IMG/VR virus record: IMGVR_UViG_2529292882_000006
Location: 1 to 29,442 of that record
Source: a virus
Lineage: Duplodnaviria; Heunggongvirae; Uroviricota; Caudoviricetes
DNA length: 29,442 nt
Reading direction: 5' to 3' (one strand)
Below are positions 1 through 7,670 of the stretch, piece by piece. The notes beneath the pieces are model-generated. The model was not told the DNA's origin and made no database searches. It saw nothing but the letters and a program-made list of their open reading frames with translations. The translations under genes and the position numbers were made by a program. Every line of letters begins with the position of its first letter. Positions within the stretch are counted from its first letter, which is position 1.

Positions 1-120
1 GCACGCTATACAGGAAGCACATTCCGGCGAGGAGAAGCAACGATTAAGCCGGGTAATGGTATTGAGCAGGCAACTCACTGGATGCCGCTACCGGAACCAC
101 CGCAGGAGCTGAATCGATGA
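1..120 (+). CDS. 3' end of an unidentified upstream gene (partial, runs off window start)
   Basis: One + frame is open from base 1 to TGA at 118-120, and that stop overlaps the ATG at 117 (ATGA). A second + frame is open to 110-112, so the coding frame is not certain. Confidence 0.25.
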   Translation, partial: ARYTGSTFRRGEATIKPGNGIEQATHWMPLPEPPQELNR

Positions 121-200
121 CCTGGCCTGAAGCATTCACAACGGTAGGAATTGCGATGGCGGTGGCGCTGGTGGTGTATTCGATTTGCCGCTGGGGATAA
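117..200 (+). CDS. 27-aa hydrophobic peptide (MTWPEAFTTVGIAMAVALVVYSICRWG), single predicted TM helix
   Basis: AGGAG at 104-108 sits 8 nt upstream of ATG 117. ATGA overlap with the upstream frame. A strong intrinsic terminator follows directly. Below the length cut-off of the ORF track. Confidence 0.35.
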   Translation: MTWPEAFTTVGIAMAVALVVYSICRWG

Positions 201-205
201 CAAAC

Positions 206-235
206 AAAAACCCCGGATTGATGGTCCGGGGTTTT
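206..235. terminator. Bidirectional rho-independent terminator
   Basis: 7-bp stem CCCCGGA (211-217) / TCCGGGG (225-231) with a 7-nt loop, A-run on the 5' side and T-run on the 3' side. It lies between the convergent + peptide and the minus-strand operon. Confidence 0.6.
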
Positions 236-256
236 GCTATTCATGGTGAATTTTTA

Positions 257-574
257 TTAACAGATTGACTGAATTCCGTTTTTCTCAACCACAGAAAGCA
301 AGCGAAGGGCAGGGCCACCAGGACGCTTTATTCCCCTTTCCCAGTCTGAAATGAGGTTTTTACTGACATTAAGATATCTGGCGGAAACAGGTTGAGACAG
401 ATGCTCGCGCTCGCGAAGTGCCCGGATTCTTTCTGGCGACATTGTTGGCGCTGGTTGCAGACAGGGTTCATCAAACTCTCTCATAGTTTGTTTTGTTACT
501 GCGCCAATATCCTGAAGTGACTCCATCATTTCATGTACGGATGCAAGCGCATCACTGCGGTAATTTTTACTCAT
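257..574 (-). CDS. HTH-domain protein, XRE/HigA2-YiaG-like putative antitoxin or regulator (105 aa from ATG 574; the ORF is open to TTG 610)
   Basis: C-terminal helix-turn-helix segment (...SQPVSARYLNVSKNLISDWERGIKRPGGPALRLL...). Lies immediately downstream of parE on the same strand. Start codon is ambiguous, with no clear SD for either candidate. Confidence 0.55.
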   Translation of the reverse strand: MSKNYRSDALASVHEMMESLQDIGAVTKQTMREFDEPCLQPAPTMSPERIRALREREHLSQPVSARYLNVSKNLISDWERGIKRPGGPALRLLSVVEKNGIQSIC

Positions 575-628: not shown

Positions 629-928
629 TTATAAAAAGTCGGTTTCATAGTTTTGTCCGCCATAGTAGACGCCAGCGATAAAGACTTTGTTGCCATCAAC
701 AGCAAAAGCAATGATCGTTCTGTGGCGGAAGTGAGTTACCCGCATTCCCTGGCGAATATCATCGCGTTTATTGCCCCGATGTGGGAATGTAGAAAACCCA
801 TCAAGATAATCAAGAAGCGCATTGGCATAATTGTCAGCAATGACGCTTCCTGCTTTCTCCGTTATATATCTGTGCAGGTTTATTATCTGCTGTTCGGCCT
901 CGGGGGTAATGATGACTTCATATGTCAT
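629..928 (-). CDS. parE: ParE/RelE-fold type II toxin
   Basis: 99 aa, with a ParE-like N-terminus (MTYEVIITPEAEQQIINLHRYI...) and C-terminal ...RVTHFRHRTIIAFAVDGNKVFIAGVYYGG. Separated by 5 nt from the upstream RHH antitoxin gene. Confidence 0.7.
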   Translation of the reverse strand: MTYEVIITPEAEQQIINLHRYITEKAGSVIADNYANALLDYLDGFSTFPHRGNKRDDIRQGMRVTHFRHRTIIAFAVDGNKVFIAGVYYGGQNYETDFL

Positions 929-933
929 GCAGA

Positions 934-1191
934 TTACTTCCCGGATCGAATCGCGGCGCGAACCTGTGAAATGGAGCGTCCGTTGTTTGGATTTTCGCGG
1001 ATAGAATCAAGAGAGGGGGCGGCTGAATGCGTTAACCACGCTTCGATTGCTTTATCGCGCTCATTCAGTGCGCGAAGCCCTTCACGAATGACCTCGCTTT
1101 CTGAAGCATAGGCACCGGAAGCCACACGGGCGCGCACCATGTCAGCCATCTCGTTAGTTAATGTAATGCTGAATTGTTGGGTTGTACGCAT
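934..1191 (-). CDS. parD: ParD-family (RHH, COG3609-like) antitoxin
   Basis: ATG at 1191 with GAGG 6 nt upstream. Product MRTTQQFSITLTNEMADMVRARVASGAYASESEVIREGLRAL... matches the ParD signature. The ORF track's longer form begins at a TTG at 1254. Confidence 0.7.
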   Translation of the reverse strand: MRTTQQFSITLTNEMADMVRARVASGAYASESEVIREGLRALNERDKAIEAWLTHSAAPSLDSIRENPNNGRSISQVRAAIRSGK

Positions 1192-1260
1192 GGTAAACCT
1201 CACGGAGTAGGATAGAACACTATTTGATGATAGCACGCTGCCTGTTGACGACAACAGAAA
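1192..1260 (-). promoter_or_regulatory. Putative parDE promoter/operator
   Basis: On the minus strand, TTGTCG (-35-like), a 16-nt spacer, then TATCAT (-10-like). Inverted repeat CTGTTG-N4-CAACAG at 1242-1257 overlaps the -35, a typical arrangement for RHH autoregulation. Confidence 0.3.
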
Positions 1261-2659: not shown

Positions 2660-3040
2660 ATGACTGAAAGCATAGAATTTGTTTTGCCTTACCCGCCAAC
2701 GGTGAACACCTACTGGCGACGTCGTGGCAGCACATATTTTGTATCAAAAGCAGGGGAGCGTTATCGCCGGGATGTGGCGCTTATTGTTCGCCAGCAGCGG
2801 CTGAAATTAAACCTGTCCGGAAGGCTGGCAATAAAAATTACTGCAGAGCCGCCGGATAAGCGCCGTCGTGACCTGGACAATATTCTGAAAGCACCACTGG
2901 ATGCGCTGACGCATGCGGGACTGCTTATCGATGACGAGCAGTTTGATGAAATCAATATTGTGCGCGGTCAGGTCGTTCCTGGTGGTCGGCTGGGCGTGAA
3001 GATTTACGAAATAATGCATGACGGGCAGGTCCAAAAATGA
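2660..3040 (+). CDS. rusA: RusA Holliday junction resolvase
   Basis: 126 aa with ...LPYPPTVNTYWRRRG... and the catalytic-region motif DKRRRDLDNILKAPLDALTHAGLLIDDEQ, matching RusA. ATG directly follows the upstream stop. Confidence 0.85.
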   Translation: MTESIEFVLPYPPTVNTYWRRRGSTYFVSKAGERYRRDVALIVRQQRLKLNLSGRLAIKITAEPPDKRRRDLDNILKAPLDALTHAGLLIDDEQFDEINIVRGQVVPGGRLGVKIYEIMHDGQVQK

Positions 3041-3858
3041 AACTGGAAGATTTACCGAAATACTATTCCCCGAAATCGCCAGGCCTGACTGATGCATCCG
3101 CCTCGACATCAAAAGATGCACTGAGTATCACTGATGTGATGGCTGCACAGGGCATGACACAGAACCGGGCTGAGATGGGATTTTCTGCGTTCCTGGGGAA
3201 AATGGGCATTAGTATGAACGACAGGGCGCGGGCAACAGAATTACTGGCAGATTATGCATTAAGTCAGTGCGATCGCGTGGCGGCGTTAAGAAAACTTCCG
3301 GCAGAAATAAAACCGGCAGTGATGCGCATTATGGCTTCGTATGCTTTTGAGGATTATGCCCGCAGTGCAGCGAGTAAAAAGCAGTGTTCTTGTTGCCGTG
3401 GGGAAAAATTTATTGAAAGCGAAGTTTTTACAAACAAGGTTCAGTATCCGGATGGTAAGCCGCCAGTATGGGCAAAGTGCACAAAAGGCGTGTATCCGTC
3501 TTATTGGGAAGAATGGAAAAAAATCCGGGAGGTGGTGAAAGTTTCCTGTCCTGAATGTAAAGGGAAGGGGGAGATTTCCACTGCCTGTAAAGACTGCCGT
3601 GGGCGTGGTGTAGCCATTCATCGTGAAGAGTCAGAAAAACGGGGTATGCCTGTTATCAGGGACTGCCAGCGTTGTGGCGGTCGTGGCTATGAAAGACAGC
3701 CGTCGACGGAGGCATTTAATGCCATACGCAAAGTGACGAGTGCTATCACGCTTGATACGTGGAAAAAATCAGTGAAACGCTTTTACGATACGTTGGTGGT
3801 TCGGTTTGACATTGAAGAGGCATGGGCGGAGCGGCAGTTAAAGAGGGTAACGCGATAG
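3037..3858 (+). CDS. Lambda-type late antiterminator Q
   Basis: N-terminus ...YSPKSPGLTD...SITDVMAAQGM... and C-terminus ...TLDTWKKSVKRFYDTLVV... parallel lambda Q; Cys-rich zinc-binding region present. ATGA overlap with the rusA stop. Confidence 0.85.
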   Translation: MKLEDLPKYYSPKSPGLTDASASTSKDALSITDVMAAQGMTQNRAEMGFSAFLGKMGISMNDRARATELLADYALSQCDRVAALRKLPAEIKPAVMRIMASYAFEDYARSAASKKQCSCCRGEKFIESEVFTNKVQYPDGKPPVWAKCTKGVYPSYWEEWKKIREVVKVSCPECKGKGEISTACKDCRGRGVAIHREESEKRGMPVIRDCQRCGGRGYERQPSTEAFNAIRKVTSAITLDTWKKSVKRFYDTLVVRFDIEEAWAERQLKRVTR

Positions 3859-4434: not shown

Positions 4435-5481
4435 ATGGCTAATACTGTAAAAATATCCAGTTGTGAGTTAATCAACGCTGATTGCCTGGAATTTATCCAG
4501 ACCTTACCGGAAAACTCTGTCGATCTGATAGTCACAGACCCGCCATACTTTAAAGTGAAACCCGAAGGCTGGGATAACCAGTGGAAGGGCGACGATGATT
4601 ACCTGAAATGGCTGGATCAGTGTCTGGCGCAATTCTGGCGGGTACTGAAACCTGCCGGAAGTCTCTACCTGTTCTGTGGTCATCGCCTGGCATCTGATAT
4701 CGAAATCATGATGCGTCAGCGCTTTAATGTGCTGAATCACATTATCTGGGCGAAGCCGTCCGGGCGCTGGAACGGGTGTAACAAGGAAAGCCTGCGGGCG
4801 TATTTCCCGGCAACAGAACGCATTCTGTTTGCTGAACATTATCAGGGACCATATCAGCCCAAAAATGACGGCTATGCGGCAAAGGGGCGCGAGCTAAAAC
4901 AGCACGTCATGGCCCCGCTGATTTCTTACTTTCGTGATGCGCGTGAATCACTGGGGATAACGTCGAAACAGATAGCGGAAGCCACCGGAAAGAAAAACAT
5001 GGCTTCGCACTGGTTTGGTATCAGTCAGTGGCAGTTACCGAACGAGGGTGATTACAACAAATTGCAGGCGTTGTTTGCGCGTGTTGCGGCAGAAAAACAT
5101 CAGCGCGGGGAACTGGAAAAGCCACACCACCAGCTGGTCAGCACATACAGTGAACTGAACCGTCAATACGCCAGCCTGCTGGAAGAGTACAAATCTTTGC
5201 GACGTTATTTTTCCGTATCAGCTGCCGTTCCGTATACGGATGTCTGGACGCACAGGCCCGTGCAGTATTATCCGGGCAAACATCCCTGTGAAAAACCAGC
5301 CGATATGTTGCGCCAGATAATTACTGCCAGCAGCCGTCCGGGTGATTTGGTTGCTGATTTTTTCATGGGCTCAGGCTCAACAATAAAAGCGGCACTTTCA
5401 CTGGGACGCCGTGCGATTGGCGTGGAACTGGAAGAAGAGAGATTTAATCAGACTGTAACTGAAATAAAAAATAATCGTTAA
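4435..5481 (+). CDS. Orphan DNA methyltransferase, N6-adenine/N4-cytosine class (DPPY motif)
   Basis: 348 aa with DPPY (motif IV) near the N-terminus and FFMGSGST (motif I) near the C-terminus, i.e. beta-class permutation. No restriction endonuclease gene adjacent. Confidence 0.85.
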   Translation: MANTVKISSCELINADCLEFIQTLPENSVDLIVTDPPYFKVKPEGWDNQWKGDDDYLKWLDQCLAQFWRVLKPAGSLYLFCGHRLASDIEIMMRQRFNVLNHIIWAKPSGRWNGCNKESLRAYFPATERILFAEHYQGPYQPKNDGYAAKGRELKQHVMAPLISYFRDARESLGITSKQIAEATGKKNMASHWFGISQWQLPNEGDYNKLQALFARVAAEKHQRGELEKPHHQLVSTYSELNRQYASLLEEYKSLRRYFSVSAAVPYTDVWTHRPVQYYPGKHPCEKPADMLRQIITASSRPGDLVADFFMGSGSTIKAALSLGRRAIGVELEEERFNQTVTEIKNNR

Positions 5482-5650: not shown

Positions 5651-5726
<76 letters not shown>

Positions 5727-5729
5727 TAT

Positions 5730-5804
<75 letters not shown>

Positions 5805-6098: not shown

Positions 6099-6421
6099 AT
6101 TCTTAATTCGAAAAAAAGAAAACACGGACACTGATAATGTCCGTGCGGCAATGCCATGTAAGTCAGCGATGAATATGGCGCAAAAAAAGCGCGGCTGTCG
6201 GATTAACGCCGCGGGACAAAGTCCGTGAAGAAGAATAAGTATCGATCTCCTTCCGGAGACGAGTTGATATTACTAAGCTTTAAAAATGGTTTAAATCCTC
6301 AGATTGACCTTAATTTCCGGTAAGTCTTATTTCATTTTCTCCGCGCTACCTCCGGCGCACATCACATCAGATAACACCACACAAAAGGCATCTGCAGGTG
6401 CCTTTGACGGGGTGTTTTTAT

Positions 6422-6443
6422 GGGCCGCTGGTGGCCCTTTTTT
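6422..6443 (+). terminator. Terminator-like hairpin immediately upstream of the lysis genes
   Basis: Stem GGGCC (6422-6426) / GGCCC (6433-6437), loop GCTGGT, then TTTTTT. It lies 20 nt before the RBS of the first lysis gene. Confidence 0.4.
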
Positions 6444-6462
6444 ATTTACAGGAGAAAAAAGT

Positions 6463-6855
6463 ATGTCTGAACCCTTATCCGGTTCCGGCACGGCTGTGGC
6501 GCTCGGCGGGGCGACGGTATTCGGGCTGTTTACCGGAACGGATTTCGGGATTGTGTTTGGTGCGTTCGCCGGGGCGTTATTTGTGGCAACGATGCCACAG
6601 GCGCTTTCAGCCTGGCGTGTGGCGGCGCATTTTCTGGTGTCGTTCATTATCGGCGTGCTGGGCGCAGAGGTTCTGGCATCCTGGCTGGTAAAGCATACAG
6701 GGTTTGACGGTGCGCCTGTCGACGCACTGTGTGCAGTGCTGGTGTCAGTGGTGTCGGTGAAGATTCTCTCGTTCATCCACCAGCAGGATATTGCATCGCT
6801 GGTGTCCGGCCTGTTCTCCCGCCTGCGGGGTGGAGGAGGCGGCAATGTTAAGTAA
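6463..6855 (+). CDS. Putative holin (multi-TM membrane protein, 130 aa)
   Basis: GGAG 7 nt upstream of ATG 6463. Gly/Ala-rich hydrophobic segments with a charged C-terminal tail (...SRLRGGGGGNVK). First gene of the cassette that ends with the endolysin. Confidence 0.45.
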   Translation: MSEPLSGSGTAVALGGATVFGLFTGTDFGIVFGAFAGALFVATMPQALSAWRVAAHFLVSFIIGVLGAEVLASWLVKHTGFDGAPVDALCAVLVSVVSVKILSFIHQQDIASLVSGLFSRLRGGGGGNVK

Positions 6856-7123
6856 CCTTCCCGGATTGCTGAATGTGGCGTTATGCACGGTTATCGTGCT
6901 GACGCTCTTTTTTTATCGTCGCCGTGATTCCAGACATAAACCGCTGATGTCATGGCTGGCCTGGCTGCTGATGCTGCTGTATGCCTTTGCGCCCCTCAGC
7001 TATCTGTGTGGTCGCCCGTTAGCAACGGGCTGGCTGGAAGTGTTTTTTAACCTGCTGTTCTGCGTGCTGGTGATACGCGCACGCGGGAACGTCACAAGAA
7101 TCTTTCCATTGTTGAGGCACTGA
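6845..7123 (+). CDS. Putative second holin/antiholin membrane protein (92 aa)
   Basis: ATG 6845 overlaps the end of the upstream gene. Three hydrophobic segments with Arg-rich loops. Its stop at 7121-7123 is 1 nt before the endolysin ATG. Confidence 0.4.
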   Translation: MLSNLPGLLNVALCTVIVLTLFFYRRRDSRHKPLMSWLAWLLMLLYAFAPLSYLCGRPLATGWLEVFFNLLFCVLVIRARGNVTRIFPLLRH

Positions 7124-7124
7124 G

Positions 7125-7670
7125 ATGAAATCAAAGGACGTCATTTTTGATGAAATCCTCGGAAAAGAGGGTGGCTACGTCAATCATCCGGACGATAAAG
7201 GTGGGCCGACAAAATGGGGTATTACAGAAAAAGTCGCCCGCGCTCACGGATATCGCGGCGATATGCGTGACCTGACGCGCGGGCAGGCGCTGGAAATACT
7301 CGAGGCGGATTACTGGTTCGGACCACGTTTTGACCAGGTCGCCGCATTATCCCCTGATATTGCTGCAGAGTTGTGTGATACCGGTGTGAATATGGGGCCG
7401 TCCGTAGCATCGAAAATGCTCCAACGCTGGCTGAACGTTTTCAACCTGCAAGGCAAATTGTTCCCGGATATGGACGCAGACGGGCGTATCGGCCCCCGCA
7501 CGATTAATGCACTACGGACTTATCTGCAAAAACGCGGCAAAGACGGCGAACTGGTGATGCTGAAGGCGCTGAATTGCACGCAGGGTGACCGCTATCTGGA
7601 GCTGGCAGAAAAACGCGAGGCCAACGAGTCGTTTGTCTACGGCTGGATGAAAGAGCGCGTAGCAGTTTAA
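7125..7670 (+). CDS. Endolysin, GH108 N-acetylmuramidase with PG_binding_3-type domain
   Basis: N-terminal signature ILGKEGGYVNHPDDKGGPTKWGIT, which is the GH108 motif, plus a C-terminal peptidoglycan-binding-like region. No signal peptide. Confidence 0.8.
   Translation: MKSKDVIFDEILGKEGGYVNHPDDKGGPTKWGITEKVARAHGYRGDMRDLTRGQALEILEADYWFGPRFDQVAALSPDIAAELCDTGVNMGPSVASKMLQRWLNVFNLQGKLFPDMDADGRIGPRTINALRTYLQKRGKDGELVMLKALNCTQGDRYLELAEKREANESFVYGWMKERVAV

Follow-up and report, generated by a model that had tools for sequence, protein, structure and literature searches.

The small inner-membrane regulators AcrZ, MgtS, KdpF, CydX and PmrR are proteins of fewer than 50 amino acids which consist of about one transmembrane helix, have been overlooked by annotation and are inserted into the membrane post-translationally (PMC12648545). 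The subject of this paper is a phage gene of comparable dimensions, a 27-codon open reading frame (ORF) here called the microgene, which begins at position 117 of a 29,442-nucleotide stretch of Caudoviricetes DNA (IMG/VR record IMGVR_UViG_2529292882_000006, positions 1 to 29,442; the whole of this stretch is referred to as the window). Its predicted product, MTWPEAFTTVGIAMAVALVVYSICRWG, begins MTWPEAFTTVG and is composed of an N-terminal WPEAF motif, a hydrophobic helix of approximately residues 6-24 and then Arg25. The likeness to the small membrane regulators, among which YohP is a 27-residue model for insertion, lies in size, in the single helix and in neglect by annotation, and theirs is the kind of action favoured here. 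The WPEAF peptide differs from them in that it is phage-encoded, lies in an early operon in an apparently coupled position and carries a WPEAF-x-x-VG motif that none of them has. No homology to the named small-regulator families was found, the best match being to KdpF with 14.7 bits over 12 residues against a cut-off of 26.85.

A number of other small proteins invite comparison. The type I toxins (Hok/Gef, TisB, DinQ, Ibs, ShoB and Ldr) are similar in size, in hydrophobicity and in having a single helix, and in Shiga toxin (Stx) phages the microgene is often within a few hundred bases of hok/sok. However, the microgene has neither a transcription unit of its own nor a structured leader, its Shine-Dalgarno (SD) sequence is exposed, its start overlaps the stop of the preceding gene (ATGA) and there is no sequence similarity. 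An Rfam scan of the window returned two tRNAs only and no type I antitoxin RNA, though an uncurated RNA would escape it; no promoter-like site was seen on either strand within positions 1-1200, and the flanks that would hold an antisense promoter are unrelated among 15 downstream contexts. Kil-like division inhibitors were among the roles that the original prediction had suggested, beside membrane-active toxins and regulators of host proteins. Lambda Kil, Rac KilR and Qin DicB resemble the peptide in being small early-operon proteins of lambdoid prophage accessory regions. They are soluble cytoplasmic proteins acting on FtsZ/MinC, whereas the WPEAF peptide is almost wholly membrane helix, and it gave no significant Pfam, NCBIfam or PHROG match that would place it among them. 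Exclusion proteins of the T4 Imm type are likewise phage-encoded membrane proteins, made early from accessory regions, but they are larger and unrelated in sequence. Holins and pinholins share the character of small oligomerising phage membrane proteins, but holins are late, usually of more than 60 amino acids, with 1-3 helices and a charged tail; the microgene matches no holin family and is outside the lysis cassette of the window. The coat protein of the filamentous phage Pf3 combines an acidic tail, short and N-terminal, with a single helix and a C-side that is basic. This is the charge pattern of the WPEAF family and points to insertion in which no signal peptide takes part; the analogy is one of topology only, Pf3 coat being a structural component of the virion and without homology to the peptide. 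The WPEAF peptide is best filed as a new family among the phage-encoded small single-pass membrane proteins.

Evidence that the microgene is coding

An ORF of 27 codons is, taken alone, within chance expectation (54 ORFs of at least 20 amino acids occur in the first 3 kb of the window) and its reality was therefore judged by conservation across sequences. The comparison drew on 252 instances from 251 loci, collected with search patterns that fixed parts of the peptide but not its start, stop, length, overlap or SD. The length is exactly 27 codons in 250 of the 252 instances and the start codon is ATG in 250 and GTG in two, whilst an SD-like tetramer with a spacer of 4-12 nt is found in 250 despite differing upstream genes. 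The original prediction had drawn attention to an AGGAG 8 nt upstream and to an ATGA overlap with the preceding frame, and had concluded that the microgene is translationally coupled. Both elements are present in the window (Table 1), where the SD reads AGGAGC, weaker by one base than the AGGAGG that nearly all relatives have, and the overlap of upstream stop and microgene start recurs in all 252 instances and, across the family as a whole, in 78 of 82 distinct haplotypes. An ATGA overlap with an SD inside the upstream coding sequence is the textbook arrangement for termination-reinitiation, and we infer by analogy that the microgene is coupled in this way. In 25 of 26 haplotypes Ser2 is encoded by AGY, a choice dictated by the TGA that overlaps it, and the lone TCT is found where the overlap is absent.

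The pattern of substitution is that of a protein-coding frame. Eight divergent lineages recovered by tblastn or blastn (59-89% amino acid identity) differ at 2-28 of 78 bases, with ratios of nonsynonymous to synonymous substitution (dN/dS) between 0.08 and 0.61, and the pooled pN/pS is 0.37 in the microgene frame compared to 0.94 and 1.53 in the other sense frames. Three independent lineage pairs yielded 31.5 synonymous and 30.5 nonsynonymous differences where 25% synonymous would be expected (binomial p = 6e-6), and the invariant residues A6, G11, A15, Y21, S22 and R25 each use 2-3 synonymous codons. Conservation of the reading frame, which had been proposed as the check on the prediction, is thus found in both close and distant relatives. 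In P1-like copies (L261 and other contigs) and in the metagenome loci L296, L301, L312, L313 and L316 the ATG has become ATA and the upstream in-frame TGA has become GGA, a change that opens an ATG seven codons earlier and gives a product beginning METGGEVISWPEAF; the paired changes are apparently a compensatory rescue of translation. From the comparative evidence it is very probable that the ORF is a translated gene under selection.

Length variants are also found. Proteins P0054, P0055, P0057, P0072-P0074 and P0077 from E. coli assemblies contain in-frame 6-nt expansions (GCGATG or GCGGTG), which lengthen the helix by 2-8 residues and leave the frame intact (e.g. one beginning GIAMAMAMAMAVAL).

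Occurrence and mosaic flanks

A 76-base query from within the ORF located the 27-codon frame in 1610 of 5426 complete E. coli genomes, at 3064 places with up to seven per genome, 163 of them on plasmids. In a tblastn search the peptide was found in 94 phage records, the carriers including the short-tailed Stx phages 933W and VT2-Sakai, BP-4795, ArgO145 and the virulent rV5-like myovirus Av-05. A variant is present in 180 plasmid records (154 from Escherichia, 25 from Salmonella and one from Klebsiella), mostly of about 90-100 kb and non-mobilizable; the two plasmids examined carry phd/doc, hot and humD and are therefore regarded as P1-like phage-plasmids. A search of genome contigs with an over-specific pattern returned E. 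coli and Shigella flexneri only and says nothing on other genera. Actinobacillus phage vB_Apl-pPE4 (PP818812.1, 13106-13186) carries a peptide with 100% identity to that of E. coli; the host label of this record looks doubtful, as the phage appears to be an E. coli-type lambdoid. No annotated feature exists at the microgene in 59 of 60 sampled E. coli places, and the ORF is unannotated in every phage, plasmid and genome record opened. Annotations miss it because, as the original prediction had pointed out, it is below the usual cut-offs, with 27 codons being three short of the customary 30.

Homology between contexts starts about 15-20 nt 5' of the ATG and ends at the stop codon in the alignment. 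The upstream genes sort into 28 clusters, and their C-terminal modules are of at least five unrelated kinds: Ea22-like (...SVEDVLR), DUF551 (...PEPPQEVNQ), a 131-aa coiled-coil protein (...NIEQEVNR), the EaA-like protein of Av-05, and one other. The window belongs to the DUF551 group, its upstream frame being 98% identical to the annotated DUF551 gene at locus L001 / E. coli Z1323CEC0005. The DNA downstream forms 15 clusters, among which are at least eight different hairpins, hokW/sokW of 933W and a DUF4222 gene; in BP-4795-like phages the last of these starts 8 nt after the microgene and is followed by xis and int. The conserved unit, as far as can be read from these alignments, is the SD, the ATGA and the 27 codons.

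In the window itself the microgene is followed by a hairpin (Table 1) with a CCCCGGA/TCCGGGG core, an A-tract before it and a T-tract after it. A strong bidirectional terminator had been predicted within 10 nt of the stop, and the strength of the hairpin is confirmed by a folding energy of -19.5 kcal/mol (z = -4.55; none of 200 shuffled sequences was equally stable). Its direction is less certain. A scan with a terminator consensus places the hairpin on the minus strand and the plus-strand T-run is partly within the stem, such that "bidirectional" is a reasonable description by inspection only. The further claim that the microgene is defined by being terminator-bounded does not stand, there being at least 15 unrelated downstream contexts that include hok/sok and the DUF4222 gene 8 nt away. 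In this prophage the hairpin ends the operon and, on the minus strand, a convergent set of helix-turn-helix, ParE and ParD genes. Since these contexts differ among relatives, the terminator of the window is incidental to the microgene.

The wider WPEAF family

Judged from sequence alignments, the window peptide belongs to a family of phage microproteins that is large and uncurated, and is its representative in E. coli. The signature of the family is M-x-W-P-[ED]-A-F-x-x-V-G from residue 1, followed by a single hydrophobic helix and an R or K near residue 25, in proteins mostly of 24-45 amino acids. The window peptide has the N-terminal motif, a helix of about 19 residues with R/K25, and an ATGA overlap in a same-strand array; a 24-aa version, MSWPEAFAIVGVAMAIAAIFIFWG, is encoded by Salmonella phage SJ46. 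The pattern W-P-E/D-A-F-A-I-V-G, which amounts to about 40 bits and for which about 0.1 chance matches were estimated in the viral collection, was found at 34 IMG/VR loci and on 37 metagenome contigs with a guanine plus cytosine content (GC) of 32-69%, the sources being soil, peat, estuary and groundwater. Nearly all of these matches lie on contigs of 32-63% GC, in tiny ORFs that carry the motif at their N-terminal end. In all but about three, the motif begins at residue 3 of an ORF of 21-40 amino acids, with a hydrophobic stretch and then a basic tail behind it, and an ATGA start is usual.

A query built from the alignment retrieved 250 proteins from a collection of 5.8 billion, none of which has a Pfam domain. 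The few that bear a name are called "hypothetical protein", "bacteriophage protein", "prophage protein" or, mistakenly, "DUF551 domain-containing protein, partial". When 1.84 billion cluster representatives were searched exhaustively with a profile, 315 were returned at E<=1e-3, mostly of 25-45 amino acids. The logo of 73 members (60% identity filter), part of the conservation in which arises from the construction of the search, reads M/L1, N/T/S2, W3 (1.00), P4 (0.97), E/D5 (0.88), A6 (0.95), F7 (0.95), A8 (0.66), V10 (0.93), G11 (0.99), A13 (0.49), A15 (0.67), A17 (0.68) and R/K25 (0.64). The distant members are found in same-strand arrays of small genes, with neighbours that include RecT, an SMC-like ATPase, a gene of the metallo-beta-lactamase fold, an RNA/DNA ligase, methylases and a T4 Y07C-like gene; at one locus of 40% GC (L259) a small DUF551-like gene is near the family member.

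Family members, short or long, gave no match in Pfam, PHROGs, NCBIfam, PADLOC or PDB, the PADLOC models having been run against ten of them. Weak matches of single peptides to phrog_4612 (E 0.019), KdpF (E 0.024) and DUF883_C (E 0.042) were rejected as compositional because they vary from variant to variant. A 40-aa relative used as a single protein query matched itself only, and a tblastn search of the phage collection with the family consensus and with member P0067 returned nothing, the motif being too short or masked. The peptide and motif strings were also absent from the literature searched, which included a review of the exo-xis region, the paper on the Ea22 structure and the supplements of small-protein surveys.

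Some members are considerably longer. P0167, P0195, P0213 and P0221 (55-199 amino acids) have a second motif, approximately L-R/K-E-x-H-K-P-M-W-x-T, in a charged C-terminal tail, and this hints at a cytoplasmic interaction site that may have been lost from the 27-aa forms.

Structure and predicted topology

The suggestion that the product is a hydrophobic peptide with a single helix is well borne out. The mean Kyte-Doolittle hydropathy of residues 6-24 is 2.11, against about 1.6 as the classical limit above which a segment counts as a membrane span, and AlphaFold2, supplied with the family alignment, modelled the 32-aa member P0067 as one continuous helix from residue 3 to residue 31 (predicted local distance difference test score 95.9). 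In 96 non-redundant members the five N-terminal residues include 2 K+R and 83 D+E, compared to 97 K+R and 36 D+E in the six residues that follow the helix. From this charge asymmetry and the positive-inside rule an N-out/C-in orientation is therefore predicted, with which the highly charged C-tails of the longer members are consistent. In such an orientation Trp3 and Trp26/Tyr21 would lie at opposite membrane interfaces. Small residues recur at positions 11/15 (G11/A15) and 13/17 (A13/A17), a spacing of the kind that favours helix-helix packing. It is probable, from the modelling and the charge statistics, that the peptide is an integral membrane helix in the N-out/C-in orientation.

Genomic setting and expression

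Without exception an accessory gene is the cistron that precedes the microgene, which is found at the end of the variable Ea22/EaA/DUF551 block. The original prediction had assigned it to a prophage early region and the comparison with characterised phages agrees. In BP-4795-like phages it is in the leftward early operon before DUF4222-xis-int; in vB_EcoS-666R9 and in the relatives of the window it comes after replication or Ea22-type genes and before DUF968-RusA-Q. In the window it lies upstream of the Q antiterminator gene. Because the microgene is probably coupled to the preceding gene of an early operon and has no promoter-like site of its own, expression is expected during infection or induction and not in a repressed lysogen. 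In the commonest context (933W, L004 2676-2950, and 54 IMG/VR loci) a locus of the hok/sok type follows about 40 nt past the microgene stop, as judged by reading of the sequence. Toxin-antitoxin morons of several kinds (hok/sok, RelE/ParE, ParDE and HigBA) gather at this site behind the Ea22/DUF551 block, which is a hot spot for them.

Possible mode of action and alternative explanations

The reading towards which the evidence inclines, with moderate confidence, is that of an early-made single-helix inner-membrane microprotein that acts within the bilayer. The sequence comparisons show that the microgene is carried, promoterless, at the end of the Ea22/EaA/DUF551 accessory block of an early operon, and ribosomes that finish the upstream gene would reinitiate at the ATGA with the aid of the embedded SD. 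The product is predicted to be inserted into the inner membrane post-translationally with its acidic N-terminus periplasmic and Arg25 cytoplasmic, where the WPEAF-x-x-VG cap and the faces of small residues might pack on a helix of a conserved host inner-membrane protein or on other copies of the peptide itself. Such packing could change envelope physiology early in infection. Action through the binding of a partner, which is proposed by analogy with the small membrane regulators, is put forward tentatively. Within it a specific and widely conserved target is favoured over generic membrane damage because the nine-residue motif is sharp across phages of very different GC. A more ambitious version, namely that WPEAF microproteins are a widespread early host-takeover factor whose N-terminal nonapeptide recognises one universal inner-membrane machine, is rather unlikely; the candidates under it would be YidC/SecYEG, FtsH/HflKC or a respiratory or divisome component.

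Several observations count against a selected microprotein with a membrane partner. Most loci were retrieved with patterns that fix parts of the peptide, and conservation at the fixed positions is therefore partly a product of the search. Some prophage copies alter otherwise invariant residues (W3R, P4S, G11R and R25S/H/C), which could be decay or tolerance, and a ribosome-profiling survey of enterohaemorrhagic E. coli considered only ORFs of at least 30 amino acids, a limit above the size of the microgene. No conserved upstream or downstream partner gene was found among the contexts compared, and no conserved face of the helix was detected, the helical moment of variability being non-significant (p = 0.34). 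Lastly, the antisense frame that shares its wobble positions with the microgene has a pN/pS of 0.375 and is open in 64 of 67 haplotypes, and in the window it includes a 66-aa minus-strand ORF. This last point, together with the position of the block exactly at a mosaic junction, could be taken to mean that the DNA codes on the other strand or that it has a non-protein role as a recombination linker, a coupling or terminator spacer or an RNA element; in the window a ribosome stopping 6-10 nt before the hairpin could affect termination. The antisense frame is excluded because it has no conserved start or stop across contexts (the first start is mostly inside or beyond the conserved block), because replacements are less conservative in it (mean BLOSUM62 -0.45 against +0.28 in the microgene frame) and because the block is within same-strand operons; the stops derived from TCA belong to another antisense frame. 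An antisense "ORF C38" is annotated across the microgene in Stx2 phage II (AP005154; L136 301-1050, minus strand) and is probably spurious, as is the minus-strand ORF of the window. As for a non-protein role, it is opposed by the excess of synonymous change, by the use of more than one codon for invariant residues, by the retention of length, start and stop in 250 of 252 instances and by the start-codon rescue. Homologues in unrelated phages with less than 60% identity keep the peptide motif and not the DNA, many contexts have no terminator after the ORF for it to space, and in the block neither an Rfam family nor an excess of RNA structure (z = -0.31) was detected. Antisense coding and non-protein roles are accordingly considered very improbable. 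Even less credible is that the hydrophobic stretch is in truth a membrane anchor at the C-terminal end of the DUF551/Ea22-like protein encoded upstream, cut off from it by a sequencing error or a mutation that shifts the frame; the original prediction had named this as one of two findings that would refute it. Fusions do exist, in the form of a 236-aa annotated protein of E. coli 317 (L134 869-1579), of two loci with long in-frame upstream extensions and of proteins P0121, P0122, P0137 and P0147. However, these in-frame fusions of Ea22/DUF551 with the microprotein, among which L013 is also listed and which provide the upstream protein with a membrane helix at its C-terminus, are rare frameshift variants, either real alleles or sequencing errors. 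In all 252 collected instances the microgene is an ORF distinct from the upstream frame and overlaps it at ATGA, and the upstream C-termini are of at least five unrelated kinds; the microgene has an ATG and SD of its own, no slippery sequence was seen at the junction in the window, and the distant members follow quite different genes.

If the microprotein is accepted, the question becomes what it does in the membrane, and here two explanations compete with partner binding. It might be a membrane-active toxin or host-shutoff peptide, the helix of which self-associates through its G-x-x-x-A and A-x-x-x-A faces and perturbs or depolarises the inner membrane early in infection, in the manner of type I toxins or viroporins. 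In size and hydrophobicity it is similar to TisB, DinQ, Ibs and ShoB (PMC12648545), the spacing of small residues at G11/A15 and A13/A17 is conserved, expression limited to a lytic early operon would make toxicity free of cost to the phage, and toxin-antitoxin morons adjoin the ORF in many prophages. These neighbouring modules vary, however, and belong to the moron insertion site; scans of the window gave no sign of an antisense RNA, a separate promoter or a sequestered ribosome site, the helix is without polar or charged pore-lining residues, and conservation of the N-terminal nonapeptide across phages of 32-63% GC fits specific recognition better. A toxin is therefore thought unlikely, though it is a stronger contender than a superinfection-exclusion factor that blocks injection by binding an inner-membrane component of DNA entry, which we consider improbable. 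Small early phage membrane proteins do exclude superinfection, T4 Imm being an example, and the WPEAF family occurs in both temperate and virulent phages and in accessory, mosaic early regions. Against this, none of the PADLOC defence or exclusion models matched the ten family members run against them, the placement of the microgene is unsuited to expression from a repressed prophage, and a role tied to one receptor fits poorly with so broad a range of hosts (GC 32-63%).

Other features of the window

Coordinates are collected in Table 1. In relatives the helix-turn-helix gene that converges on the microgene is paired, in a HigA-like role, with a RelE/ParE (HigB-like) toxin; the toxin is missing in the window, where homology to L001 ends at base 576 and genes for ParE and ParD are directly upstream of the helix-turn-helix gene on the same strand. 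The latter is either an orphan antitoxin or part of a three-gene unit. Further downstream, two tRNA genes follow the Q gene and a DNA methylase gene, and a fimbrial-subunit moron is situated between the lysis cassette and the terminase genes in the lambdoid late region.

Table 1. Position of the microgene and other features in the window
Feature	Position	Strand	Remarks
Upstream DUF551-domain gene, 3' end (...THWMPLPEPPQELNR, then stop)	1..120	+	Last 39 codons; Pfam DUF551 E 5.9e-9
Antisense ORF	44-244	-	66 aa; wobble-sharing frame
Shine-Dalgarno AGGAG	104..108	+	8-nt spacer to ATG; inside last codons of upstream gene
ATGA start/stop overlap	117..120	+	Putative termination-reinitiation coupling site; upstream TGA at 118-120
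27-codon microprotein gene (MTWPEAFTTVGIAMAVALVVYSICRWG)	117..200	+	ATG start; TAA stop at 198-200
Hairpin terminator	207..235	.	6-10 nt past microgene stop; common to the convergent minus-strand helix-turn-helix, ParE and ParD genes
Helix-turn-helix gene	257-574	-	HigA-like
ParE gene	629-928	-	
ParD gene	934-1197	-	
Q antiterminator gene	3037-3858		
N6/N4 DNA methylase gene	4435-5481		
tRNA genes Thr(tgt), Gly(tcc)	5651-5804	+	
Lysis cassette	6304-7670		Holin genes 6304-7123, GH108 endolysin 7125-7670; ~6 kb downstream of microgene
Fimbrial subunit gene	9248-10057	+	269 aa; K88/F4-type (PF02432, E 6.4e-55)

Significance

The microgene has been overlooked in the best-studied Stx phages (933W, VT2-Sakai and BP-4795) and in about 30% of complete E. 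coli genomes, where it is often multicopy. The family to which its product is assigned comprises hundreds of clusters across phages of very different GC, with a motif that rivals an active site in sharpness, yet none of Pfam, PHROGs and NCBIfam has an entry for this family. Even if the role of the peptide proves to be modest, it is a clean test case for the annotation of genes of fewer than 30 codons by conservation, coupling and codon-level selection. Should the host-takeover proposal be true, WPEAF microproteins would form a new class of phage effectors whose action is confined to the bilayer, and their lambdoid branch would be linked to the Ea22/DUF551 block that modulates the choice between lysis and lysogeny. 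Should the peptide prove to modulate a membrane machine of the host, it would offer a new tool of compact size and add a participant to the early conflict between phage and host; in Stx phages it might also affect induction and lysogeny, and through them the release of toxin.

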